Part shown: positions 3,825 to 44,311 of the stretch, piece after piece
Layout of the letters: each line of letters starts with the position of its first letter
Numbering within the stretch: position 1 is the stretch's first letter
NCBI GenBank assembly: GCA_938004185.1
Contig: CALKWN010000065.1
Span: 633,943-697,942 of the forward strand
DNA: 64,000 bases
Direction of reading: 5' to 3'
Origin: an uncultured candidate division WWE3 bacterium
GTDB taxonomy: Bacteria > Patescibacteriota > WWE3 > UBA101185 > UBA10185
Notes under the pieces: model-generated
What the model was told of the DNA's origin: nothing
The model's database searches: none
The model's input: only the letters and a program-made list of their open reading frames with translations
Position numbers and translations under genes: made by a program

Positions 3825-4700
3825 ATGTTAAATCTTGAAATTGCGCATAAAAACTTTATAGAAAAATTAAGAAACGAGGGCAAGTCCGAAGCTACTGTTG
3901 TGGCTTATAGTAAGGACGTTGATCAACTATTAAATCACTTAACCGGAGTTGGTGTTAACCTGGTTAATGAGATTACACTTTCGCACCTGGAGGCTTTCAT
4001 GAAGAAGCTCGAAGACGCGGACTATACAATGAAATCCGTTTCCAGAAAAACCAATGCTACGAGAACTTTCATGAAGTATCTTCACTCCGAAGGTCATATT
4101 ACCGATAATGTTTCTCTTGGATTAAAACATCCCAAACTTGAAAGTAAGGCTCCCAGAATTCTAACTAAAATGGAATACAGAGCTTTAAGAGATGCGACAA
4201 GAAACGATCCAAGAACATACGCAATGATAGAGGTTTTGCTTCAAACAGGAGTGACAATTTCGGAACTTGCTGAAATAAAAACCGAGCACCTCACTATTTC
4301 GGGAACTACCGGAACTCTTTTTGTACCTAAAAAGAACAACAAAGAGGCTAGAACAATACCCCTAAACAAATCCGTCATCGAAGCTATAAACAGATACATG
4401 AACGAAGAAAGATCTATTGTTAAAAGCTCAGGATATTTATTCGTAACCAAAACCGGAAATCCCCTGTTAATAAGAAATATAAGGTCTACTATAGATAGAT
4501 ATTTCAAGGTCGCCGGTGTAGAAAAAGCAAAAGTTAACGATTTAAGACACACTTTTGTCGCGCACCACCTTGCTAACGGAGTAAGCATAATCTATCTTTC
4601 TAAGATTGCAGGACATAAAAGAATTTCAACTACCGAAAGATATCTTCAGTACATCGATAGAGTCGGCGAACAGGAAAAAACTGAACTGGGTATTCTTTAA
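3825..4700 (+). CDS. Tyrosine site-specific recombinase (XerC/XerD-like)
   Basis: 291 aa. C-terminal catalytic box 'HDLRHTFVAHHLANGVSI...GHKRISTTERYLQY' carries the R..H..R..Y residues; SAM-like N-terminal domain. Confidence 0.85.
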   Translation: MLNLEIAHKNFIEKLRNEGKSEATVVAYSKDVDQLLNHLTGVGVNLVNEITLSHLEAFMKKLEDADYTMKSVSRKTNATRTFMKYLHSEGHITDNVSLGLKHPKLESKAPRILTKMEYRALRDATRNDPRTYAMIEVLLQTGVTISELAEIKTEHLTISGTTGTLFVPKKNNKEARTIPLNKSVIEAINRYMNEERSIVKSSGYLFVTKTGNPLLIRNIRSTIDRYFKVAGVEKAKVNDLRHTFVAHHLANGVSIIYLSKIAGHKRISTTERYLQYIDRVGEQEKTELGIL

Positions 4701-4714
4701 GTTGTTATAATCTG

Positions 4715-6001
4715 TTGGTGGGAAGAACGGAAAAAGGTAAAAGAATTTCTAGCTTAATGGGTTTTGTAGATAACTACATAAAAAATCACGACATCAGAAA
4801 AATTGCTGTAAGCATCATCATTTTCGGGCTATCACTTCTAACTTTCATACATCTAACAATAGCGGCTTTCCAGGAAAGATCTCTGGATTTTTACGCTTTT
4901 CTTACAGGAGCAAAAATTCTTGTAGAAAACAAGCAGGAACTATACAACCCATACGTCCAGTATCAAGTACAGGAAGAGCTCTTCAAAGAGGGCTTCGCAT
5001 ATGAGAGAGCTTTTATGGCTTACATTAACCTCCCTTTAAGCGCTGTTCCATACATACCGTTCCTAATAATACCCCCTCACGTATCTGCAGAGCTGGTACA
5101 TTTGGGCACACTTTTGATATTAATTTACTGCATAACAAGACTCTACAAGTTCCACAAAATAAAACCCCTGTCAGGTGTTACTTTAGTTCTCGCTTTCTTC
5201 TACCCGCTGTATTCTTCAATACATTTGGCTCAAATAGGGACATTGATCCTCCTGGTATTAACAGAAATGTATTTAGCTTACATGAAAAGACAAACCACCA
5301 AACTATCTCTTCTGGCTTCACTACTAATACTAAAAATTCAGTATCTCCCAATAGTGGCTTTTATATATGCCATACACCCGGAAAGAAAGAAATATATCTG
5401 TATTGCGGGTCCTCTAACTCTTATTTTTCTTGCCGCCAATTATTTTATTATGGGGCCGGACCTAGTCGCTCAATACATAGCGCTACTGGAGACTTATCAA
5501 ACAGTGCCGGAAAGGTTTGGGATGGCGTACGAAAAAGGCTTAGATATTTACTCAACTCTGCAATATTTTTTCGATGTGTCGGAAAAGATGAAGTTTGTGT
5601 TACCAATTTTTTTGGGAGCACACTTAGCTATGTTTTCATTCATGCGTTCATACAAATTCGATCAAAAAAGAAAAGATCTACTATTCTACTTCATCATACT
5701 TTACAGTTTAATACTGAGCCCCCACACCATGGCTGCTGATTTTGTTTTCCTCATAATACCTATCATCGGCTTGCTTCATAAAACACGATCAAAAGTTTTT
5801 TACGCCATTACAGTATTCGTTCTTAGCCTTTTCTTTTTTTATACAGCCTATGCAACTCAATGGGCACATACAATAATGATATCCATATACGCACTACTCC
5901 TACTCTCCTCAACACTCAAAAAACCCGGAAAAATAGGGAGGTGGGTACAAAACTCAATGGTGGGTGATCCTGGGCTCGAACCAGGAACCGCTCGTGTATA
6001 A
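4715..6001 (+). CDS. Polytopic membrane protein (possible GT-C/DUF2029-like glycosyltransferase)
   Basis: 428 aa with more than 10 predicted TM helices. The last ~14 codons run into the oppositely oriented tRNA-Ile before a stop is reached. The family call is weak. Confidence 0.35.
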   Translation: MVGRTEKGKRISSLMGFVDNYIKNHDIRKIAVSIIIFGLSLLTFIHLTIAAFQERSLDFYAFLTGAKILVENKQELYNPYVQYQVQEELFKEGFAYERAFMAYINLPLSAVPYIPFLIIPPHVSAELVHLGTLLILIYCITRLYKFHKIKPLSGVTLVLAFFYPLYSSIHLAQIGTLILLVLTEMYLAYMKRQTTKLSLLASLLILKIQYLPIVAFIYAIHPERKKYICIAGPLTLIFLAANYFIMGPDLVAQYIALLETYQTVPERFGMAYEKGLDIYSTLQYFFDVSEKMKFVLPIFLGAHLAMFSFMRSYKFDQKRKDLLFYFIILYSLILSPHTMAADFVFLIIPIIGLLHKTRSKVFYAITVFVLSLFFFYTAYATQWAHTIMISIYALLLLSSTLKKPGKIGRWVQNSMVGDPGLEPGTARV

Positions 6002-6033
6002 GACGAGAGCTCTGCCAATTGAGCTAATCACCC
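5958..6033 (-). tRNA. tRNA-Ile (anticodon TAT)
   Basis: Minus strand: GGGTGAT-TA-GCTC-AATTGGC-AGAGC-T-CTCGT-CTTATAC-ACGAG...GGTTCGAGCCC...ATCACCC-A-CCA. The anticodon loop gives UAU. Confidence 0.7.
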
Positions 6034-6061
6034 AAGTAAATAATTTTTTCAAAGTTACTAA

Positions 6062-6215
6062 AATTACACCTAGTACTTCCTTTGAGCCATAGCTCGCTGC
6101 GCTCACTATAGCATCAAACGTAAGATGAATACTTCCTTTGAGCCATAGCTCGCTGCGCTCACTATAGCATCAAACGTAAGACGAGAGCTCTGCCAATTGA
6201 GCTAATCACCCAAAC
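6062..6215. repeat. Tandem ~55-bp duplication plus a 37-nt copy of the tRNA-Ile 5' half
   Basis: The unit 'tacttcctttgagccatagctcgctgcgctcactatagcatcaaacgtaag' occurs twice in tandem. The second copy continues directly into 'acgagagctctgccaattgagctaatcacccaa', which is identical to tRNA-Ile positions -2 to 35. Confidence 0.8.
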
Positions 6216-13816: not shown

Positions 13817-13891
13817 TCCCCTGTAGCTCAAGGGTAGAGCGTCCGACTGTTAATCGGCAGGTTGGTGGTTCGAATCCACCCGGGGGAGCCA
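13817..13891 (+). tRNA. tRNA-Asn (anticodon GTT)
   Basis: TCCCCTG-TA-GCTC-AAGGGTA-GAGC-G-TCCGA-CTGTTAA-TCGGC-AGGTT-GGTGG-TTCGAAT-CCACC-CGGGGGA-G-CCA. Confidence 0.85.
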
Positions 13892-15391
13892 ATTAGACCT
13901 TATACGAACCAAATCTCGCGATACTAAAGCCTCAAACTCGGGTACGAACTCAAAACTAGTGATTATTCGCTCTTTTTCCAGGAATGCTTTTGATATGAAA
14001 AAGCGTAAAAACTGCTTTCTTTGTTGCTTATTCATTGCGTCATAAAGGTTTCCGATATGTCTCAAGCCGTTGATTATTTTCTCTATTTCGGAGTCTTTTA
14101 GGTTAGTAGATGGCTTATCCAAGTCTTTTATCTGTGCCTCCACCTGTTTTAGCTCTTCTTTTAGAGGTTTATATCTTTCCTTGAGTCTATCTATGTCCAC
14201 TAACTCGTCACCAGAAAACATCTTGTCCTCAATAACTCTCATTTTCTTGTCTAAAGCGTCTTTTCTGATTTTTAATACCTTAATCTGTGCGGGAACACCC
14301 GAGCCCTGCTCACTTTTAACCTCGTATAAAACACCTCTAAGCTCAGCAAGAGCCTCCTCAGTAAATACTGTTCCATTAAAGAAGTCTGCAATCTTATCAT
14401 CAGCTGTTTCAAGTGGAACATAAGTCCTAGAACAGCTATGGCATCGATAATAATTGCCTTTATCGTGGTATTCTCCAAACATTTGCCTGCCACACTTCAA
14501 GCAATGGGCATATCCTGACAGGAGGGTTACATATTTTCTATCTCTATGAGCACCTTTATTCTTTTTCTCAAACATAAGCAATGATTTGGCATACCAATCA
14601 AAGGATATGATTGGTTCATGTGCCGCTTTTTCATATACTACCCCATCATATAGTAGCCCTCCAGAGTAAAGTATATTTTTTAGGATATTTGTGACTGTGT
14701 TTTTGTAAACTTTTCCACCGGACTCATTCCTAAAACCCCTTTCATGTAACATTTCTGCTATCCTATGGACGGAATAATTACCTGACAACCACAGCTCATA
14801 AGCCATTACAATAAAATGCTTCCTCTCGGGGTCTGGGTATATCGGGGAATCTTTTTTATAGGAGTTTAAGTAACCAATTGGGCTTTTTCCTGGTTTTAAC
14901 CCTCTCTGAGCCAGAGAAAGCATAATCCTCTTTGTTTTCTTGCCTGTCCTTCTAGATTCAAGTTGGTTTACAGCCGCAACAATCACATCTAAAAACTCAC
15001 CTTCATCTGTATCACCATAATACCCATCTAGTGGAATCAGTTTTATTTTTCTTTTTTTAAGAAAAGCTTTAATCGCTAAATGGTCAGAGACATTTCTGGC
15101 TAATCTACTAGAATCCTGTACTAGTACAATGTCTACGGACTCAGCATGCTCATCACAATAATCAAGTAGTTCTTCCATATCAGGTCTGTCTAAATCTCTC
15201 GCACTCTTTCCGGAATCTTCAAATGTTTTGACAATAGAAATGTTATTTTGCTTTACAAAGTTTTGAAAAAGCTCGTCTTGTACATTCAAACTATGCCCAG
15301 TAAGAGCCTGCCGTGTAGTAGAAACTCTTTTATAGCATATAGCTTTTAATATTGTTCCTGTCTTTGGTTTCTGTTCTTCTAATCCGTACAT
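13850..15391 (-). mobile_element. Large serine recombinase (integrase) gene; its 3' end overlaps tRNA-Asn
   Basis: 513 aa. N-terminal resolvase catalytic domain 'ICYKRVSTTRQALTGHSL...IVLVQDSSRLARN', recombinase domain, Cys-rich zinc ribbon 'CLKCGRQ...CHSC', C-terminal coiled coil. The last ~14 codons are encoded by the complement of the tRNA. Confidence 0.85.
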
Positions 15392-18705: not shown

Positions 18706-19485
18706 TTGTTTTCACGCAAAGTATTAAATCAATGCTATCATTTTTATATGACAGTCCTTTATGAAGAAGTGCAACTACTAAGCTTTATTTCAAACGAAAA
18801 ACTGTTTCATGCTGTAGAAAAAATAATTACGAAAGCAAAAAAGTCTAAGCGTGAAGACAAGGACATTTATAAAAATGCTATTGACCCGTTTTCTGCACTT
18901 TTTGATGCTTCTTTAGCTGGGATTTCATTGAAAGACTGGTTAGAAGTAGAAAGAACAAGACAAGTTCAAAAATCTTTACAGAACACCATCGGGGAGTTTC
19001 ATGAAGAAATAATTGGCTCAATGCCTGGTTGGGAAAGACTGTTAGTGGGACATATCATTGATGTTGTTAATCCTGAGAAAAAGATTATTGCGGAACTAAA
19101 AAACAAATGGAATACCACTAAAGGTTCCGACAAAGTAGTTTTATACAATAGCTTAAGCATGGAATTAAAATCCGAACAATACAGTGGTTATACTGGGTAC
19201 TATGTAGAAGTAATCCCTGAGAAAGGTAAAACTTACGACAAACCTTTCATGCCTTCTGACCATACTAAACACATACGAAAACCTGAGAATCAAAGAATAC
19301 GAATTATAGATGGAAAAAGCTTCTACGCCTTAGCTTCTGGAGACCCGCTCGCACTACAAAAACTATATAAGATATTGCCCAGAGTAATTGCAGAAATAGA
19401 AAATAGTCCAAGCATTGCAGATTACAGCTCAGAAGAACTGTTTCATATACTGTTTGGTAAGGCATATTCTCCAGACTACAGGTAA
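18706..19485 (+). CDS. Putative Type II restriction endonuclease (PD-(D/E)XK-like) of an R-M pair
   Basis: Immediately upstream of and co-oriented with the C5-MTase. Candidate catalytic block 'GHIIDVVNPEKKIIAELKNK' fits a D...E.K arrangement. TTG start at 18706, or ATG at 18748. Confidence 0.45.
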   Translation: MFSRKVLNQCYHFYMTVLYEEVQLLSFISNEKLFHAVEKIITKAKKSKREDKDIYKNAIDPFSALFDASLAGISLKDWLEVERTRQVQKSLQNTIGEFHEEIIGSMPGWERLLVGHIIDVVNPEKKIIAELKNKWNTTKGSDKVVLYNSLSMELKSEQYSGYTGYYVEVIPEKGKTYDKPFMPSDHTKHIRKPENQRIRIIDGKSFYALASGDPLALQKLYKILPRVIAEIENSPSIADYSSEELFHILFGKAYSPDYR

Positions 19486-19495
19486 CCCTTGCATA

Positions 19496-20791
19496 ATGCA
19501 TTGGTTACTGATAACATATTTAAATATGCCTAATGACCTCTTTACTGTTACAGAAACAGCAGAAAAAATCGGTGTTTCAGCAGATACAATAAGACGCTGG
19601 GAAAAAATGGGTCTGATTAAATCAACACGCTCTGAGCAGAACTACAGACTTTTCAGTTTGTCCGAAGTTGAGAGAGTAAAACAGAAACAAGAAGGCACTC
19701 ACAGTCCAATTGGATTTAAAATCCTAAAGAACAATAAAAAGCACCCCTTTACAACAATCGAACTTTTCACAGGAGCCGGTGGAACTGCATTAGGTTTAGA
19801 AAATGCAGGATTCACAAATACTCTAATGGTCGAGATTGATAAGAACGCAGTCCAAACACTTAGAGTCAACAGACCGAAGTGGAATGTTATTCAAGATGAC
19901 ATAAAAAATGTATCGTTTATTGGAAAAGAAGTAGATGTGGTGGAGGGTGGTTTCCCCTGTCAATCTTTCAGCTTTGCTGGGAAAAAAATGGGATTTGAAG
20001 ACACACGAGGTACCTTGTTTTTTGAGTTTGCAAGATGTGTTAAAGAAACACGCCCGAAAGTAGCGGTTGGAGAGAATGTTAGAGGATTACTAAAACACGA
20101 TGACGGAAAAACTTTAAAAGTTATGGTCGATGTACTATCTGAACTCGGATACAAAGTGGCGTATAAAATATTAAGGGCACAATACCTGGATGTACCACAG
20201 AAAAGGGAAAGATTGATTATAATCGGTGTAAGAAATGACCTTGATATACCTATCCTGTTTCCTAAAGAAAAGGACTATTTTATTTCCATACAAGAAGCTT
20301 TAAAGGATGTTCCGGCATCGGAGGGTCAAAAATATCCTGAAAAGAAACGAAAGGTATTAGAACTAGTGCCTCCTGGGGGATACTGGAGAGACCTGCCTCT
20401 GGATATACAAAAAGACTACATGGGAGCCAGTTTTTATATGGGTGGGGGTAAAACAGGAATGGCTAGAAGACTGTCCTGGAATGAACCAAGTTTAACATTA
20501 ACCTGTGCCCCTGCTCAAAAACAAACCGAAAGGTGTCACCCAGAGGAAACAAGACCACTTTCCTATCGCGAATATGCCAGAATACAGACTTTTCCTGATG
20601 AATGGGATTTTGCTGGCTCATTAGCTTCAAAATACAAACAAATAGGAAACGCTGTTCCCGTAAATCTCGGTTATCACATAGGTAAAGCACTAATAGCAAT
20701 GCTTGAAAAAGACCCGAACCGAGAAGACTTTGTTGAGGTTAAGGAACCAGCTACAAGTAAAAACTTAAACATGCCGCTTTTCCCTAATTAA
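19496..20791 (+). CDS. DNA (cytosine-5)-methyltransferase with N-terminal MerR-type HTH
   Basis: Motif I 'FTGAGGTALGLENAGF', motif IV 'GGFPCQSFSFAGK', motif VI 'ENVRGLL'. N-terminal 'LFTVTETAEKIGVSADTIRRWEKMGLI' is a MerR-like HTH. Start at 19496 or 19526. Confidence 0.85.
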   Translation: MHWLLITYLNMPNDLFTVTETAEKIGVSADTIRRWEKMGLIKSTRSEQNYRLFSLSEVERVKQKQEGTHSPIGFKILKNNKKHPFTTIELFTGAGGTALGLENAGFTNTLMVEIDKNAVQTLRVNRPKWNVIQDDIKNVSFIGKEVDVVEGGFPCQSFSFAGKKMGFEDTRGTLFFEFARCVKETRPKVAVGENVRGLLKHDDGKTLKVMVDVLSELGYKVAYKILRAQYLDVPQKRERLIIIGVRNDLDIPILFPKEKDYFISIQEALKDVPASEGQKYPEKKRKVLELVPPGGYWRDLPLDIQKDYMGASFYMGGGKTGMARRLSWNEPSLTLTCAPAQKQTERCHPEETRPLSYREYARIQTFPDEWDFAGSLASKYKQIGNAVPVNLGYHIGKALIAMLEKDPNREDFVEVKEPATSKNLNMPLFPN

Positions 20792-40000: not shown

Positions 40001-40075
40001 TGCTCTTTGTATAGCATACAGCAGATTAAATCACAAATAAAACCCAAAACGTGGGGGATCTGATGGAAATTTCTG

Positions 40076-40096
40076 GCGGAGGGAGAGGGGTTCGGT
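40076..40096. repeat. 21-nt copy of the tRNA-Ser(GGA) 3' end
   Basis: 'tggcggagggagaggggttcg' is identical to 40242-40262, the 3' terminus of the tRNA including CCA. It lies 166 bp away in direct orientation. Confidence 0.75.
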
Positions 40097-40203
40097 CACA
40101 TGTCTTTCGTTTGTAGCTCACCATGTTCGCAACATAAGAAAGCATTCGACCCCGCCTCAGTCGCCTTCGGCTCCTTCCGGCATTCTCACCCCACAACCAC
40201 ATC

Positions 40204-40240
40204 AAAAAAATACCCGGCAATAAATGCCGGTACTTTTTTG
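40204..40240. terminator. Bidirectional rho-independent terminator hairpin
   Basis: aaaaaaa-tacccggca-ataaa-tgccgggta-cttttttg. A 6-8-bp GC stem flanked by an A-run and a T-run. Sits directly 3' of tRNA-Ser on the minus strand. Confidence 0.5.
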
Positions 40241-40241
40241 A

Positions 40242-40331
40242 TGGCGGAGGGAGAGGGGTTCGAACCCTCGTGCCGCTTTCGCGACGCGTCGCTTTCCAGG
40301 CGAGCCGATTAGACCACTCTCGCATCCCTCC
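40242..40331 (-). tRNA. tRNA-Ser (anticodon GGA)
   Basis: Minus strand: GGAGGGA...TCGC-CTGGAAA-GCGA, long variable arm CGCGTCGCGAAAGCGGCACG, GAGGG-TTCGAAC-CCCTC, TCCCTCC-G-CCA. Confidence 0.8.
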
Positions 40332-40397
40332 ATAGCCGCAAGCAGTTATGATTTTAACATAAACACGAACTGTCCTAACCAAATTAGAAAGGCGGTT

Positions 40398-41477
40398 TTA
40401 AAGATACTTGTCGAGTTTTTTATTCCTAAGCTCGTTTTGAATATCTTTAATTTTGTCGGTTTTATCTTTGGGAACTATAAGCAAAGTATCGGCAGTATCA
40501 ACAACAACCATATCTTTTAAACCGAACACGGCAATAAGCTTTTCCGGATTATCGCTTTTTATTAGAGAACTCTTCGAATCCATGGCGATAACATTACCTT
40601 CTTTGTAAACCTGATCTTTGCGGGCAAAATATTCATAAAGTGAGTTCCATGTTCCTATGTCAACCCAATTGTAGTTAAGCTGGAGTATTAACGAATCCTT
40701 AAACAAGTGTCTGGTTACAATTTCGGTGGCCCCTGCCTCCATGTTTTGATATATAGCACCTATTCCATCAAAACTATTCGTCTCGCTCAAAACTTTTTTT
40801 ATTTCCATTAGTGCTGAGTACCAATCGGGTTTATATTTCTCGTAGGACTCGAGTAGCATGTTAGGGTACCAGCAATTATGGTTACTGTGTTTTACAACAT
40901 TAAAGTTTTCTATAAGTTCTTTTGTCTCGACGTAGTTTGAGCGGCGATCAACAAATTCTCTGGCCTCGTACACATCAACGCTTCCGTATGAACGAATTTT
41001 TTTACCGAGCTTAAGATAGTCAACCCCAAGATCGGGGTAAGTTACGGCAATTCCTCCGGAAATAAATTTTTTGTGTTCTTTTACCAGCTTTTCTGCTGTT
41101 TCTATTAACAACAGATAGTTATTTTCCGGAATTCTCACACAATCGGACTGAACTATCATAAACGGCTCACCAGGATATTTTATATCAGTAAAAACAACGG
41201 CAAGCCCGTCGGCGGGACCTCTGTTTTTAGCTGAATCAGGCTCAATGATGTAATTTTCTTCGGGTATCTCGGGAACCTGTTCCCGGGCAATTTCTAAGTA
41301 ACGCTCTTTAGTTGAAATAAGTATGTCTTCGGCACGGTACTTTCTTAAAAGAATTTTGATGTTGTAAGAAAAAAGGGATTCTCCGTTTAAAATTTTCTGA
41401 AATTGCTTGGGATTATTTTCTCTACTATATGGCCATAGTTTTGTGCCCTGGCCACCGGCACTGACAATAAATTTCAT
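40398..41477 (-). CDS. Sugar-phosphate nucleotidyltransferase (mannose-1-phosphate guanylyltransferase-like)
   Basis: N-terminal 'FIVSAGGQGTKLWPYSRENNPKQF' matches the NTP-transferase G-rich loop (xxAGGxGTRLWPLSR). Confidence 0.65.
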   Translation of the reverse strand: MKFIVSAGGQGTKLWPYSRENNPKQFQKILNGESLFSYNIKILLRKYRAEDILISTKERYLEIAREQVPEIPEENYIIEPDSAKNRGPADGLAVVFTDIKYPGEPFMIVQSDCVRIPENNYLLLIETAEKLVKEHKKFISGGIAVTYPDLGVDYLKLGKKIRSYGSVDVYEAREFVDRRSNYVETKELIENFNVVKHSNHNCWYPNMLLESYEKYKPDWYSALMEIKKVLSETNSFDGIGAIYQNMEAGATEIVTRHLFKDSLILQLNYNWVDIGTWNSLYEYFARKDQVYKEGNVIAMDSKSSLIKSDNPEKLIAVFGLKDMVVVDTADTLLIVPKDKTDKIKDIQNELRNKKLDKYL

Positions 41478-41504
41478 AATTCATTATACCAAGTCGCTTT
41501 AAAA

Positions 41505-42233
41505 CTATTCTCGGTTCATTGCCTTCTTTCTCAAACTCTGGGGCATTAATTCGATAGCATACCTCAAAGAAGTTCTAGGCATTTTCTTTTTGTTTTTCAA
41601 AACATATTTCAATACTTCGTCTCTGTGCTGACGGCTTTCTTCTTTAAGAAGCCAGCCGTAACCTTTTTGAACCATGTCTTCCTTGTCTTCCAATAAAATA
41701 TCCGAAATTTCAAAAGCGTCCTTAAGATACTTTCCTTTTTTGGCGGGAACTATAAGGCTGACCGCGGCCGCTCTTCTTAGCCATAAGTTTCTACTTTTAG
41801 CCCACGTTTTTAATCCTGCAATGTGTTTGGGAAATTTTTCTATAAATGCGCCGACGGCGTGGTTGCAAAAAGTGTCACACTCAGCCCAATTGTCTATATA
41901 CTTATCTATCCAACGCTCAAAAACTTTAAAATCCGCCTCTTCGTAAGTCGCGAACCAATAAGCCCAATTAGCCGCCACCCAAGACTCCTCACAATAACCA
42001 GATTTAAAAAGCTCCTCACAAACTTCATATATTTGTTTTTTGCTAAGGTTTCGAGAATCAGAAAAACCGACCTTCCCAACCTTTAAAACATCCGCAGACC
42101 TCACCCCGTGGCGTAAGACAGGGTTTTTAAAAAATCGTTGAAAACTTTTTTTAGACTCCGGCGTAGAAAATTTTTTAAGTTCTTTTCTAATGGAAAGGAC
42201 GGTTTCAGTAACATCATTTTTTTCTGAGGTCAT
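41505..42233 (-). CDS. DNA alkylation repair enzyme family protein (AlkD/AlkC-like HEAT repeats)
   Basis: 'SRNLWLRRAAAVSLIVPAKKGKYLKDAFEISDILLEDKEDMVQKGYGWLLKE' matches the conserved C-terminal core of the PF08713-type family. Confidence 0.65.
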   Translation of the reverse strand: MTSEKNDVTETVLSIRKELKKFSTPESKKSFQRFFKNPVLRHGVRSADVLKVGKVGFSDSRNLSKKQIYEVCEELFKSGYCEESWVAANWAYWFATYEEADFKVFERWIDKYIDNWAECDTFCNHAVGAFIEKFPKHIAGLKTWAKSRNLWLRRAAAVSLIVPAKKGKYLKDAFEISDILLEDKEDMVQKGYGWLLKEESRQHRDEVLKYVLKNKKKMPRTSLRYAIELMPQSLRKKAMNRE

Positions 42234-42275
42234 AAAAGGATTTTACTCCCGATATACCCGGGGACAAAATATGTA

Positions 42276-42960
42276 TAATGGGGTCATGAGCGCATTCTCT
42301 ATAAAGATTATTGCTCTGCTTACAATGGTTCTGGACCACACGGGAATTTTTCTGTTTCCTAATGTTTTTTGGCTGAGATCGGTCGGGCGCCTATCCTTCC
42401 CTCTTTTTGCCTGGCTTATTTCAAACGGCGCAAAACATACTAAAAACTTTAATGCTTATATTAGAAGGTTGTTTATTTTCGGCTTAGTATCCCAGATACC
42501 GTTTTTACTGGCCAACAGAACCGTGCAACCCGATTTTTCCGATCTGAATATAATGTTCACCCTGCTTACCGGACTTCTGGCTATAAAGGTATGGATTTCG
42601 GCCCTGGGAAAATCCAAAAAATATTTTTTAATCTTTTTGTTGGTGGCGGTTTCACACATAACAAAGATGGACTACGGGCCTGCAGGCGTCCTTTCAATTT
42701 TATTCTTTTATATTTTCTCGGAAAGCTCGTGGAAAATGTTACTATCTCAAGTCGTTGCATTTACATTGGTTTTTCCGTTGCAAGTGAGTTTGCGGGAAGG
42801 TCAAATTAATTTCTTTAATTTATTTCAAAGCCTGGCGCTTTTCTCGTTAATATTTATAGGACAGTATAATTTTAAACCTGGACCGAGAGTTAAGTATCTT
42901 TTTTACATTTTCTATCCCGTGCATTTTATTGTTTTTTATGTTTTGAGAATGCTTTATTAA
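42276..42960 (+). CDS. TraX-family membrane protein
   Basis: 'IKIIALLTMVLDHTGIFLF...VGRLSFPLFAWLISNGAKHTKNFNAYIRRLFIFGLVSQIPFLLAN' fits the TraX signature (DH..., GR.afP.Fa...G..hT.n). 7-8 TM helices. Confidence 0.6.
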
Positions 42961-43353
42961 AGAGTAGGGGGTTTGGGCGAATTTAATTTATTTCCCGGGT
43001 TTGTTTCCAATTAAAACCAGCAAAAGCACAATAACAGCAAAAAGTCCAAACCCGACATAAAAAAGAAGAAGTGAGTCATTCATAATGATATTCTCTCAAA
43101 TTTTAATGAAATCCACCACGACGATAGGGTCATTAAAATACCCAGTAAAATCAATGGTGCTTCGGGAGTACTTACCAAGGGAGCCAGTACTAAAGTACTT
43201 AGTAAGATCTGCCCCGCATTATCAAAAATGTTAGAGAACCTTTTCAACTGAGGTTTTGTAAATAAATCCACACCACTATAGTAGAGGGATTTTTACAGAG
43301 GGAAAGACGTTTGAGTCTAATAAAAATAGATATTTAACCGTACTACTTTTCAC

Positions 43354-43444
43354 TGGCGGAGGGAGTGGGATTCGAACCCACGTGTGAGTTGCCCCACGCT
43401 TGGTTTTCGAGACCAGCCCGGTATGACCGCTTCGGTATCCCTCC
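43354..43444 (-). tRNA. tRNA-Ser (anticodon CGA)
   Basis: Minus strand: GGAGGGA...TGGT-CTCGAAA-ACCA, long variable arm, TGGG-TTCGAAT-CCCA, CTCCCTCC-G-CCA. Confidence 0.8.
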
Positions 43445-43496
43445 GAGTCGAGTAAAGTATACAACATTGGTATTATAATGGCATCCGCTCATAAAT

Positions 43497-43805
43497 ATGG
43501 AAAAAGGCAATTTTAAAGAAAACGTACTCTGTGAGGTTAGAAAAATCCCAAAAGGCTTCGTAGCAAGTTATGGTCGCATTGCTTTACTGGCGGGAAACCC
43601 CCGTGGAGCCAGAGAAGTTGGGTGGATTCTTAGTAGAAATGGAAACGACGGAATTACTCCGTGGTGGAGAGTCATAAATTCGAAGGGGTACGTAAGTATC
43701 AAAAACCCCGAAATTGCGGCCTCAGAACAAAAACAATTGTTGGAAATAGAAGAAGTGGGGGTGTCTGAAGATTTTTCATTGAAAGAGCCTATTCCTTGGT
43801 ACTAG
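43497..43805 (+). CDS. Alkyltransferase-like (ATL) protein - MGMT DNA-binding domain lacking the catalytic Cys
   Basis: 'YGRIALLAGNPRGAREVGWILSRNG...ITPWWRVINSKGYVS'. The MGMT helix-turn-helix and Asn hinge are conserved, but the PCHR active site reads PWWR (Cys replaced by Trp), as in ATL proteins. Confidence 0.65.
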   Translation: MEKGNFKENVLCEVRKIPKGFVASYGRIALLAGNPRGAREVGWILSRNGNDGITPWWRVINSKGYVSIKNPEIAASEQKQLLEIEEVGVSEDFSLKEPIPWY

Positions 43806-43814
43806 ACGCTTACC

Positions 43815-43834
43815 TTGGTGGACCGTAGCGGAAT
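43815..43834. repeat. 20-nt copy of the tRNA-Ala 3' end (plus 1 nt of flank)
   Basis: 'ttggtggaccgtagcggaat' is identical to 43968-43987. It lies 153 bp from the tRNA in direct orientation. Confidence 0.75.
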
Positions 43835-43968
43835 AAGAGCTTGCTCGTTCGTTACACTCACTGCGCTTCCTCATACATCCGTCTGCGACGGATGAAGAAC
43901 CACAAAGTAGTTTGACGCGTTAGATCACACAAACAATCGGCTGCTGCCTTTGGCAACATCCGCTTGTT

Positions 43969-44044
43969 TGGTGGACCGTAGCGGAATCGAACCGCTGATC
44001 TCCGCAATGCGAATGCGGCGCTCTACCAACTGAGCTAACGGCCC
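43969..44044 (-). tRNA. tRNA-Ala (anticodon CGC)
   Basis: Minus strand: GGGCCGT (G3:U70 pair present)...CCGCA-TTCGCAT-TGCGG...GCGG-TTCGATT-CCGC-ACGGTCC-A-CCA. Confidence 0.85.
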
Positions 44045-44076
44045 CCAAAAAACATTATACCTACAGCTTACTTTAA

Positions 44077-44108
44077 CCGAAATTCACTGGCGCACCCGGA
44101 GGGACTCG
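44077..44108. repeat. 32-nt copy of the tRNA-Arg 3' end plus 11 nt of 3' flank
   Basis: 'ccgaaattcactggcgcacccggagggactcg' is identical to 44223-44254. It lies 146 bp away in direct orientation. The intervening segment is unusually GC-rich. Confidence 0.75.
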
Positions 44109-44233
44109 CCTTCCGGTTCGCAACTGCTGTTGCGACCTGCAGGCCGGGCTCGGCGCCGTCGCGCCTGCGCCATTCGAGTCTTCAAGTACACAAAGTAAAT
44201 TTCGTAAGTACCTTCGGCACTTCCGAAATTCAC

Positions 44234-44311
44234 TGGCGCACCCGGAGGGACTCGAACCCCCGACTTCAGCGTCCGCAACGCTGCGTTCTATCCTCTGAAC
44301 TACGGGTGCAC
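44234..44311 (-). tRNA. tRNA-Arg (anticodon GCG)
   Basis: Minus strand: GTGCACC...CAGCG-TTGCGGA-CGCTG...GGGGG-TTCGAGT-CCCTC-CGGGTGCG-CCA. Confidence 0.75.

Follow-up and report, generated by a model that had tools for sequence, protein, structure and literature searches.

The window analysed here is a stretch of 64,000 nt (in contig CALKWN010000065.1) from a 649-kb contig (ERZ724101 NODE_1) of a WWE3/Katanobacteria member of the Patescibacteria. Judged by DnaG identity, its closest species genomes are WWE3 RIFOXYD1_FULL_43_17 (82%) and KatS3mg101 (79%). Three transfer RNA (tRNA) genes of the window, tRNA-Ser-GGA, tRNA-Ala-CGC and tRNA-Arg-GCG, are each followed by a short insert that ends in a second copy of the tRNA 3' end, and these inserts, called units in the following, are the subject of this study. 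The region around them is ordinary chromosome with rpoD, dnaG, a mannose-1-P guanylyltransferase-like gene, smpB and the transfer-messenger RNA gene. ARAGORN placed all three tRNA genes on the minus strand, so that "downstream" means lower coordinates. The name S units is used for the family that comprises the Arg unit, the Ser unit and their relatives. The features are the following.

40242-40331, minus strand: tRNA-Ser(GGA), intact, target of the Ser unit (ARAGORN; Rfam tRNA model, 46.3 bits)
40074-40241, minus strand: Ser unit ("B"), 168 nt, with leader, divergent S-family core and displaced block (repeat; covariance model)
40214-40230, no strand assigned: Ser-unit leader, an intrinsic terminator hairpin that is bidirectional, each strand having a U-run (terminator scan)
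40074-40094, minus strand: displaced copy of the last 21 nt of tRNA-Ser-GGA, from T-loop CGAAC to CCA (100% identity)
43969-44044, minus strand: tRNA-Ala(CGC), intact, target of the Ala unit (ARAGORN; Rfam, 69.7 bits)
43816-43968, minus strand: Ala unit, 153 nt (repeat; fold)
43816-43834, minus strand: displaced copy of the last 19 nt of tRNA-Ala (repeat; gene spacing)
44234-44309, minus strand: tRNA-Arg(GCG), intact, target of the Arg unit (ARAGORN; Rfam, 65.4 bits)
44088-44233, minus strand: Arg unit, 146 nt, with leader hairpin, S core and displaced block (alignment with the sister locus L191)
44195-44233, minus strand: leader hairpin of the Arg unit, GUGAAUUUCGG...CGAAAUUUAC (fold)
44088-44185, minus strand: S core of the Arg unit (RNAalifold; covariance model, 106.6 bits; pair counts)
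44088-44108, minus strand: displaced tRNA-Arg block, last 21 nt, continued by the native 11-nt flank at 44077-44087 (repeat; empty site of L191)

The units of 146-168 nt contain no integrase gene, and the only open reading frames (ORFs) found there are spurious ones that overlap units and tRNAs. With lengths of 146, 153 and 168 nt they fall below the 2-200 kb range of Islander (PMC4383910).

Each unit is delimited by an exact direct repeat. The repeat measures 21 nt at tRNA-Ser-GGA (40074-40094 and 40242-40262, spacing 168 nt), 20 nt at tRNA-Ala-CGC (43815-43834 and 43968-43987, spacing 153 nt) and 32 nt at tRNA-Arg-GCG (44077-44108 and 44223-44254, spacing 146 nt). A preliminary description of this DNA had recorded exact repeats at all three genes, which was correct except for the Ser copy, placed 2 nt off at 40076-40096. 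All three repeats begin within the T-loop and run through the encoded CCA; only the Arg repeat, composed of 21 nt of tRNA and 11 nt of flank, goes on beyond it. By our own estimate, even a 13-mer is expected by chance only about 4e-4 times per tRNA and strand. We scanned the window and 80 DnaG-anchored loci of other Patescibacteria (designated by L numbers) for end copies of at least 13 nt; with the three loci left out in which the window is duplicated, this covered 253 tRNA genes. On the same strand as the gene, 16 copies lay downstream and 13 upstream, and the opposite strand had none. The opposite-orientation class serves the authors of Islander as a gauge of false positives (PMC4383910). 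Orientation and configuration of all copies are as expected for integration, and the units show what Islander looks for, an intact tRNA gene with a cognate end-fragment in the same orientation, the 3' fragment lying downstream. The combination of a tRNA gene and its displaced 19-21-nt end is the attL/attR signature of site-specific integration at a T-loop/acceptor site; the comparison with attL and attR that had been drawn at first sight was apt.

Loci with and without inserts, as envisaged in the same description, were found among sister strains, which we reached via homologues of the neighbouring guanylyltransferase-like gene. In the locus L091 (GCA_046128295.1; 98% protein identity to the window) an extra unit of 147 nt stands between tRNA-Ser-GGA and a copy of the Ser unit of the window. 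This copy is 100% identical, and apart from the 147-nt gap window and sister strain agree at 356 of 356 aligned bases, so that the difference between them is one base-exact unit. In L191 (97% identity in the adjacent 193-aa protein) the tRNA-Arg gene is directly followed by GTGAATTTCGGTTAAAG... and then by tRNA-Ala. Exactly the 146-nt Arg unit is absent there, and the Ala unit is present and identical to that of the window. The first 11 nt of the Arg-unit leader are the native flank of tRNA-Arg, as read from this empty site. Filled and empty sites in these comparisons thus have exact boundaries within flanks of about 98-100% identity, as is characteristic of mobile insertions.

More distant loci also differ in their units. 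The WWE3 species group L199-L206 is without Arg and Ala units, and the Ala unit is absent from L004, L005, L084 and L200-L204. In L200-L204 tRNA-Ala lies 8 nt from an MGMT-like gene; in the window the place next to this gene is taken by the displaced Ala copy, at the similar distance of 10 nt from the stop codon, and the unit lies between copy and tRNA. The Arg and Ala tRNAs are 52 nt apart in L007 and L008. A BLAST search against all loci compared revealed no relatives of the Ala unit.

Stacked and decayed units were seen as well. Besides the stacked pair in L091, a decayed remnant ending in CGAACCCC lies distal to an intact unit in L182, and a decayed unit follows tRNA-Ser-GGA in L004. In KatS3mg101 a complete S unit of the Arg type is found 2.28 kb downstream of tRNA-Arg; it is about 80% identical to that of the window, and its compensatory stems are new. 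The same kind of unit in L004 had at first appeared to be an orphan, and this was explained by about 2.2 kb of later insertions between unit and tRNA-Arg. Since the complete leader-core-block module of KatS3mg101 has a ...GCACCA of its own in front of it, the additional DNA represents a separate and later insertion. This DNA (L193 3699-5850, corresponding to about 1-2010 of L004) includes an element with terminal inverted repeats of about 95 nt (GCAGAAGCGAAACTAAACGCTCGGGCGGGCAAAAAGG...) between tRNA-Arg and the S unit; the element encodes a helix-turn-helix protein and proteins of 317 and 154 aa without significant Pfam match, and may be an undescribed transposon.

In seven sister-strain loci from independent assemblies (L084, L085, L087, L088, L090, L092 and L190) the contigs break inside or right at the units. 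This would be expected of a repeat with several copies per genome, and it means that automated binning and annotation tend to lose or truncate such loci. Independent samples and assemblies show the same structures, so that artefacts of assembly do not account for them.

We built a covariance model of the S family from four members, the Ser insert of the window not being among them. The model scored this insert at 39.4 bits (E about 1e-6, match 40074-40195), the Arg unit of the window at 106.6 bits, the unit of KatS3mg101 at 94.9 bits and the truncated unit of the 89% strains at 33.8 bits. It found matches in the window, L004/L193, L084, L091 and L181-L188, representing five species or strains. 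The Ser and Arg inserts are thus related, as the preliminary description had proposed. Pairwise alignment of the three inserts gave only a marginal match between Ser and Arg, and the relationship became clear only through the sister-strain intermediates and the covariance model. The GC-rich 37-mer of the Arg insert, which had been taken as anomalous for this genome, is the conserved core of the S family. While the genome has 40% G+C, the G+C content of the units is 0.57-0.73. An S unit consists of a leader that is a hairpin or terminator, a GC-rich three-way junction of about 75 nt and the tRNA-derived block.

The extra Ser unit of L091 (147 nt) is homologous to the Arg unit of the window (146 nt) and yet has the Ser 3' block at its end. 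The two share the motif TCGAATGGCGCAGGC and have the same hairpins, namely a long one rich in A+T in the leader (GAAATTTCGG...CGAAATTTAC), one of 5 bp with GACG loop and one with AGCA loop. Homologous S units therefore occur at the non-homologous sites tRNA-Arg-GCG and tRNA-Ser-GGA, as is expected of a mobile insertion. A metagenome scan for the junction of insert and Ser block retrieved 8 loci with three further variants. In the first the leader is an intrinsic terminator, in the second this terminator leader is deleted and the spacing is 104 nt, and the third has another leader and another stem of the AGCA hairpin. Four S variants at the two tRNAs measure 146-149 nt and share the covarying fold described below.

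Searches for S units outside these loci, or for known sequences within them, returned little. A scan of IMG/VR with TCGAATGSCGCAGN{8,16}GAGC gave 88 matches, all in unrelated coding sequence and in about the number expected by chance, and a scan with a 25-nt S-core motif gave none, so there is no viral source for these two S-core sequence motifs in IMG/VR. In 1.4 Mb of related loci the covariance model did not reveal any larger element with an S core. Rfam 15, searched at gathering thresholds and at E<=10, found nothing in the inserts except chance-level overlaps centred on the tRNAs. No sigma-70-like promoter for the units was seen in a promoter scan, and several S-unit leaders are intrinsic terminators between tRNA and core. 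Co-transcription of the inserts with the tRNAs had been suggested earlier; for the Ser unit it is doubtful, since the leader of this unit is an intrinsic terminator. The motif GCGCAG recurs in the Arg and Ala inserts and in an insert at tRNA-Ile of the window.

RNAalifold predicted a consensus fold of S units in the form of a three-way junction with 26 pairs. In the closing helix an internal pentamer pairs with the beginning of the tRNA block, as GGUUC/GAACC in Ser units and as GACUC/GAGUC in Arg units. P1 is a hairpin on a short helix, and the long helix P2 is capped by AGCA. In the Arg unit P1 is GGCGC-GACG-GCGCC, and the GAGUC strand of the closing helix is the start of the tRNA block. The last 15 nt remain as a free 3' tail made up of what is left of the T-stem strand, of the 3' strand of the acceptor and of NCCA. 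An internal hexamer tracks the host tRNA, being GACTCG for Arg and GGTTCG for Ser, and pairs with the first 5-6 nt of the block. Among 7 distinct sequences 95% of the cells at paired positions were paired, as compared to 29-40% with the partners slid, and 17 of the 26 pairs showed changes on both sides; none of 500 shuffles reached the observed values. The AGCA-loop hairpin occurs with five different stem sequences. A segment of the Arg insert that had been likened to the anticodon arm of tRNA-Arg is the 3' strand of a hairpin that differs in every family member, and the likeness is coincidental.

One-sided changes, such as G-C to G-U, were not found in the S family (0 in 162 cells). Sense and antisense strands fold about equally well, and neither folding energy nor G-U content told them apart. 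A fold at the DNA level or of single-stranded DNA fits these two observations at least as well as an RNA fold. The fold of the Arg unit has a z-score of -5.75. The Ala unit has a predicted folding energy of -50.9 kcal/mol on the tRNA-sense strand (z -2.27) and of -41.0 kcal/mol on the antisense strand, and it contains the 8-bp hairpin noted earlier (43876-43894). The predicted fold of the Ala unit is closed like that of the S units: AGCGGA, 4 nt past the tRNA CCA, forms a helix with UCCGCU at the block start. For 13 short units of Patescibacteria, not all of which are independent, complementarity to the block start was above that of shuffled sequences (sum 72 versus 59.9, p about 0.001).

S units have a core motif, which reads GACTCG-AA-TGGCGCA in Arg units and GGTTCG-AA-TGGCG in Ser units. 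In it the complements of the two ends of the duplicated 21-nt block stand side by side, one segment for the first 6 nt and one for the last 5-7 nt. A model in which the insertion interrupts a T-arm had been entertained since Ser units contain GGTTCGAA. The Arg version led to its rejection: where the 5' half of the tRNA T-arm, GGTTCG, would be expected, it has GACTCG, the complement of the block start.

Large serine recombinase genes were also found at tRNA 3' ends, one in the window and one in the sister strain.

13850-15391, minus strand: gene for a large serine recombinase of 513 aa (Pfam Resolvase, Recombinase and Zn_ribbon_recom)

The 3' end of this gene runs into the antisense of tRNA-Asn(GTT) (13817-13891). 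Positions 13817-15391, possibly to about 22000, are probably an integrated island; no displaced tRNA-Asn fragment that could mark its far end was found within the window. Beyond the recombinase gene there are ORFs without Pfam match, a MerR-fused C5 DNA methylase (19415-20791) and low G+C content (0.35 at 16-20 kb). The one island with both ends mapped lies in L091 (219-4682, also present in L090), a 4.45-kb element downstream of tRNA-Ser-CGA that the window lacks. An 18-nt repeat from T-loop to CCA (ATCCCACTCCCTCCGCCA) flanks the element, which encodes a large serine recombinase whose gene spans 117-1664, a rolling-circle Rep protein (REP_ORF2-G2P) and three ORFs without Pfam match. The recombinase ORF crosses the attachment site, its C-terminus ...WRREWDSNPRV being read from the tRNA antisense. 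The two large serine recombinases share 25% identity. By tblastn the Rep and accessory proteins of this island are absent from the window, where only the distant large serine recombinase was found. The end of the L091 island has no similarity to the units. According to the Islander paper, only tyrosine recombinases were then known to target tRNA genes (PMC4383910), and large serine recombinases on tRNA 3' ends are notable given that statement. The only tyrosine recombinase among the window ORFs scanned (3825-4700, 291 aa, Phage_integrase and N-terminal SAM-like domain, of XerC/D size) sits between a tRNA-Met pair and tRNA-Ile and is probably the chromosomal Xer.

With a probability that we put at roughly 55%, the inserts are miniature (about 105-170 bp), non-coding, integrase-less insertion units that are specific for tRNA genes and moved in trans. 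They look like an undescribed miniature version of the mobile islands of tRNA genes. An undescribed family of miniature tRNA-end-capped elements had been among the possibilities listed in the preliminary description, and it is favoured by the occurrence at two tRNAs, the base-exact presence and absence and the stacking. A unit would enter at the T-loop/acceptor attachment site, whereby the tRNA gene is regenerated and the old end displaced. New units would stack next to the tRNA, and older ones would be pushed outward and decay with distance. Units may also be lost precisely by recombination between their direct repeats, and the junction of an excision circle would read ...GGAAGG + 21-nt block + GTGAATTTCGGAAG. 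As the units encode nothing, they must be moved in trans, most plausibly by the recombinases of larger islands. Large serine recombinases are candidates because of co-occurrence: their genes abut tRNA 3' ends, and the L091 island has a repeat of the same kind. That of the window is a candidate for such a trans-acting enzyme. We infer that insertion, and not just deletion, creates the polymorphism, and the acting enzyme, the nature of the fold as single-stranded DNA or RNA and the way in which a unit would gain a new tRNA 3' block are likewise inferences.

Several points weigh against this interpretation. Our searches gave no excised or circular form, no autonomous relative and no recombinase linked to a unit, and a double-stranded circle of 146 bp is a poor substrate for recombination. 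Each case of presence and absence could be a precise deletion between direct repeats and not an insertion. Simple recombination of att with att cannot give an Arg block here and a Ser block there. At tRNA-Arg the identity with the target runs 11 nt into the native flank, so that homologous exchange between strains fits as well as site-specific integration. The unit of about 80% identity at the orthologous tRNA-Arg of KatS3mg101 could reflect long-term retention of a useful element, and not mobility. The covariation rests on 7 distinct sequences in an alignment fitted to the model, and the Ala unit is a single sequence with no family.

A tentative extension, in our opinion doubtful, is that S units are a new class of miniature tRNA-targeting element whose recombination site is a folded strand of DNA or RNA with guide-like segments. 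The first segment of the core changes with the target tRNA, and its base-pairing might select or bridge the target ends. Pairing of this kind would explain the retargeting from tRNA-Ser to tRNA-Arg, which ordinary recombination of att with att could not achieve. The core motif gives only a lead to such a guide-like or folded attachment site.

A first alternative is that the units are structured RNA genes or cis-elements which are useful to the host and tied to tRNA genes, the repeat being a part of the RNA and not a scar. We consider it unlikely. A small RNA could, for example, mimic or pair with the 3' end of the neighbouring tRNA and act as a decoy, processing element or regulator. The strongly conserved fold with compensatory changes would suit this, and so would a high G+C content in a genome of 40%, as seen in other structured RNAs. 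The unit with about 80% identity is kept at tRNA-Arg where other intergenic DNA no longer aligns, the core sequence UGGCG(CA) is complementary to the ...CGCCA end common to tRNA-Arg-GCG and tRNA-Ser-GGA, and the Ala unit folds better on the tRNA-sense strand. However, the units are dispensable, since strains with about 98-100% identity in the flanks differ by whole units. Terminator leaders between tRNA and core and the lack of a detected promoter also argue against RNA genes. The lack of one-sided changes together with equal folding of both strands of S units is unusual for RNA, there is no Rfam match, and stacked and decayed copies resemble the turnover of junk DNA.

Quite unlikely in our view is that the units are leftovers of kb-sized islands, reduced to about 150 bp by internal deletion. 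Larger islands do enter tRNA 3' ends, as seen from the repeat at tRNA-Ser-CGA of L091 and from the recombinase at tRNA-Asn of the window, and about 2.2 kb of foreign DNA lie between tRNA-Arg and the unit in KatS3mg101. Partial tRNAs and degenerate remnants are known at tRNA islands (tycheposon preprint; Islander, PMC4383910). However, random deletion would not give four variants of 146-149 nt with the same architecture and a covarying fold at two tRNAs. In the earlier suggestion of serial integration followed by decay, the stacking and decay in L091, L182 and L004 thus stand and the origin as random deletion remnants does not. The L091 island end is unlike the units, the KatS3mg101 module has its own ...GCACCA and received the extra DNA later, and neither the covariance model search of related loci nor the IMG/VR motif scans turned up a larger relative. 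That the units are partial tandem duplications of tRNAs with 5' parts decayed to pseudo-tRNAs, which the preliminary description had considered and for which a same-strand copy near the gene and a 17/20 resemblance of part of the Arg insert to the Arg anticodon arm might speak, is effectively refuted, as identity breaks off sharply from 100% to background, local alignment of the insert bodies to the 9 tRNAs of the window is no better than that of shuffled sequence, no tRNA or pseudo-tRNA signal was seen at E<=10, one insert family follows two unrelated tRNAs, and the supposed anticodon-arm segment is a strand of a variable hairpin.

We compared the units, taken as mobile insertion units, with known systems. 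tRNA genes are classic landing pads for genomic islands. Like the islands described by Islander or as tycheposons, the units combine an intact, regenerated tRNA with a displaced 3' fragment from the T-loop region in the same orientation. In the literature on islands, stacks are interpreted as older elements being displaced outward by new arrivals (tycheposon preprint; Islander, PMC4383910); the extra unit of L091 lies beside the tRNA and decayed units lie distal, similar to degenerate remnants at islands. Islander collects islands of 2-200 kb with an integrase (PMC4383910), whereas the units have 105-170 bp, no integrase or other gene, and a single-strand fold that is conserved and takes in the first part of the tRNA block. 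Standard surveys seek only kb-sized elements with an integrase; since Islander rejects candidates below 2 kb or without integrase (PMC4383910), such units would go unreported. Attachment signature, stacking and remnants thus match tRNA islands; size, lack of integrase and conserved fold do not.

The other systems that we considered each match the units in some features and fail in others. Cis-mobilizable elements (CIMEs) are integrase-less, kb-sized deletion derivatives of integrative elements that have kept attL and attR and have recognisable parents. The units resemble them in being non-autonomous, flanked by att repeats and presumably moved by the recombinase of a related element, but they have no known parent, are an order of magnitude smaller and are defined by structure. 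Folded single-stranded DNA serves as substrate in integron attC sites and in the roughly 150-nt attP(+) hairpin of phage CTX, which is used by XerCD. Similarities to these sites are a structure conserved with free variation of the stems, the size of about 60-150 nt, regeneration of the target with stacked insertions as a result, and a closing helix that recreates the target duplex at the identity boundary. In contrast, the units are without attC R and L boxes (inspection of the alignment showed no RYYYAAC...GTTRRRY pair closing the hairpins) and without integron integrase. Their target is a tRNA gene and not attI or dif, the repeat has 19-32 nt instead of few bases, and the units are known from sequence, a single-stranded DNA form being only hypothetical.

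MITEs (miniature inverted-repeat transposable elements) and small bacterial repeats such as REP/BIME, Correia and RPE are small, non-coding, multi-copy, structured and variable between strains. The units share all these properties. Unlike MITEs, they have no terminal inverted repeats, as the unit ends are not mutual inverted repeats, and no short fixed target-site duplication, the duplication being 19-32 nt of the tRNA gene; the strict tie to tRNA 3' ends and the long target-derived repeat also set them apart. In casposons and CRISPR, Cas1-type integration beside a leader or tRNA 3' end gives a target duplication of 14-36 bp. A long target duplication, insertion at the tRNA 3' end (as in casposons) and regeneration of the site next to a "leader" are shared with the units, but the unit repeat varies in length (19, 21 and 32 nt) and terminal inverted repeats are lacking. 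No Cas1 gene was seen among the ORFs examined near these tRNAs.

A family of such units would mean that the attachment machinery of tRNA genes has miniature hitch-hikers, analogous to MITEs for transposases. The units would contribute to variation among strains and to breaks in assemblies of the tiny genomes of the candidate phyla radiation, and they would offer a compact natural substrate on which tRNA gene recognition by recombinases of these uncultured bacteria can be studied. A new recombination logic would be at hand if the fold served as a single-stranded or guide-like site.

The preliminary description had counted tRNA-Ile as a fourth case. At tRNA-Ile(TAT) (5958-6210, minus strand) it is the 5' part of the gene, the first 34-35 nt up to the anticodon loop, that is copied, and the copy lies about 145 nt upstream. 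Copy and gene are separated by two tandem repeats of 55-56 nt that contain GAGCGCAGCGAGC and a stretch rich in A+T. The configuration, called "5' fragment", is the rarer one and differs from the pattern at Ser, Ala and Arg. BLAST against all loci compared found no relatives of the Ile insert.

Short end copies were seen in other members of the Patescibacteria too, and they look to be widespread in the radiation. Woese-, Davies- and Shapirobacteria-like genomes (L028, L035, L038, L057, L058, L074, L018, L029 and L072) carry 3'-end copies of 14-19 nt at 49-105 nt downstream of tRNA-Ser or tRNA-Asn. L035 and L057 have homologous 66-nt inserts after different Ser isoacceptors; L038, L058 and L074 have in common GAGAAGTTTA and a stem complementary to the T-stem strand of the copy. 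In L035 (1710-1885) and L057 (1363-1535) the tRNA genes lack CCA (...CCGCtcg), and the copies read ...CCGCCA and ...CCACCA. The presence of CCA in the copies only could be due to an RNA-templated step or to attachment sequences from a host that encodes CCA.

In two Shapirobacteria-like loci (L045 2544-2618 and L063 2455-2530) 26-40 nt of the 3' half of tRNA-Ile(TAT) are copied 66-81 nt downstream. These copies start in the anticodon loop, which is the attachment signature of the anticodon-loop type with an equally tiny insert. In L022 and L062, tRNA-Ser 3' ends are followed by TTCGAC... modules with CGCTGCGC or CTCAGGACGTCGC, and the module of L062 is tandemly repeated, each repeat with a 9-nt copy of the tRNA end.

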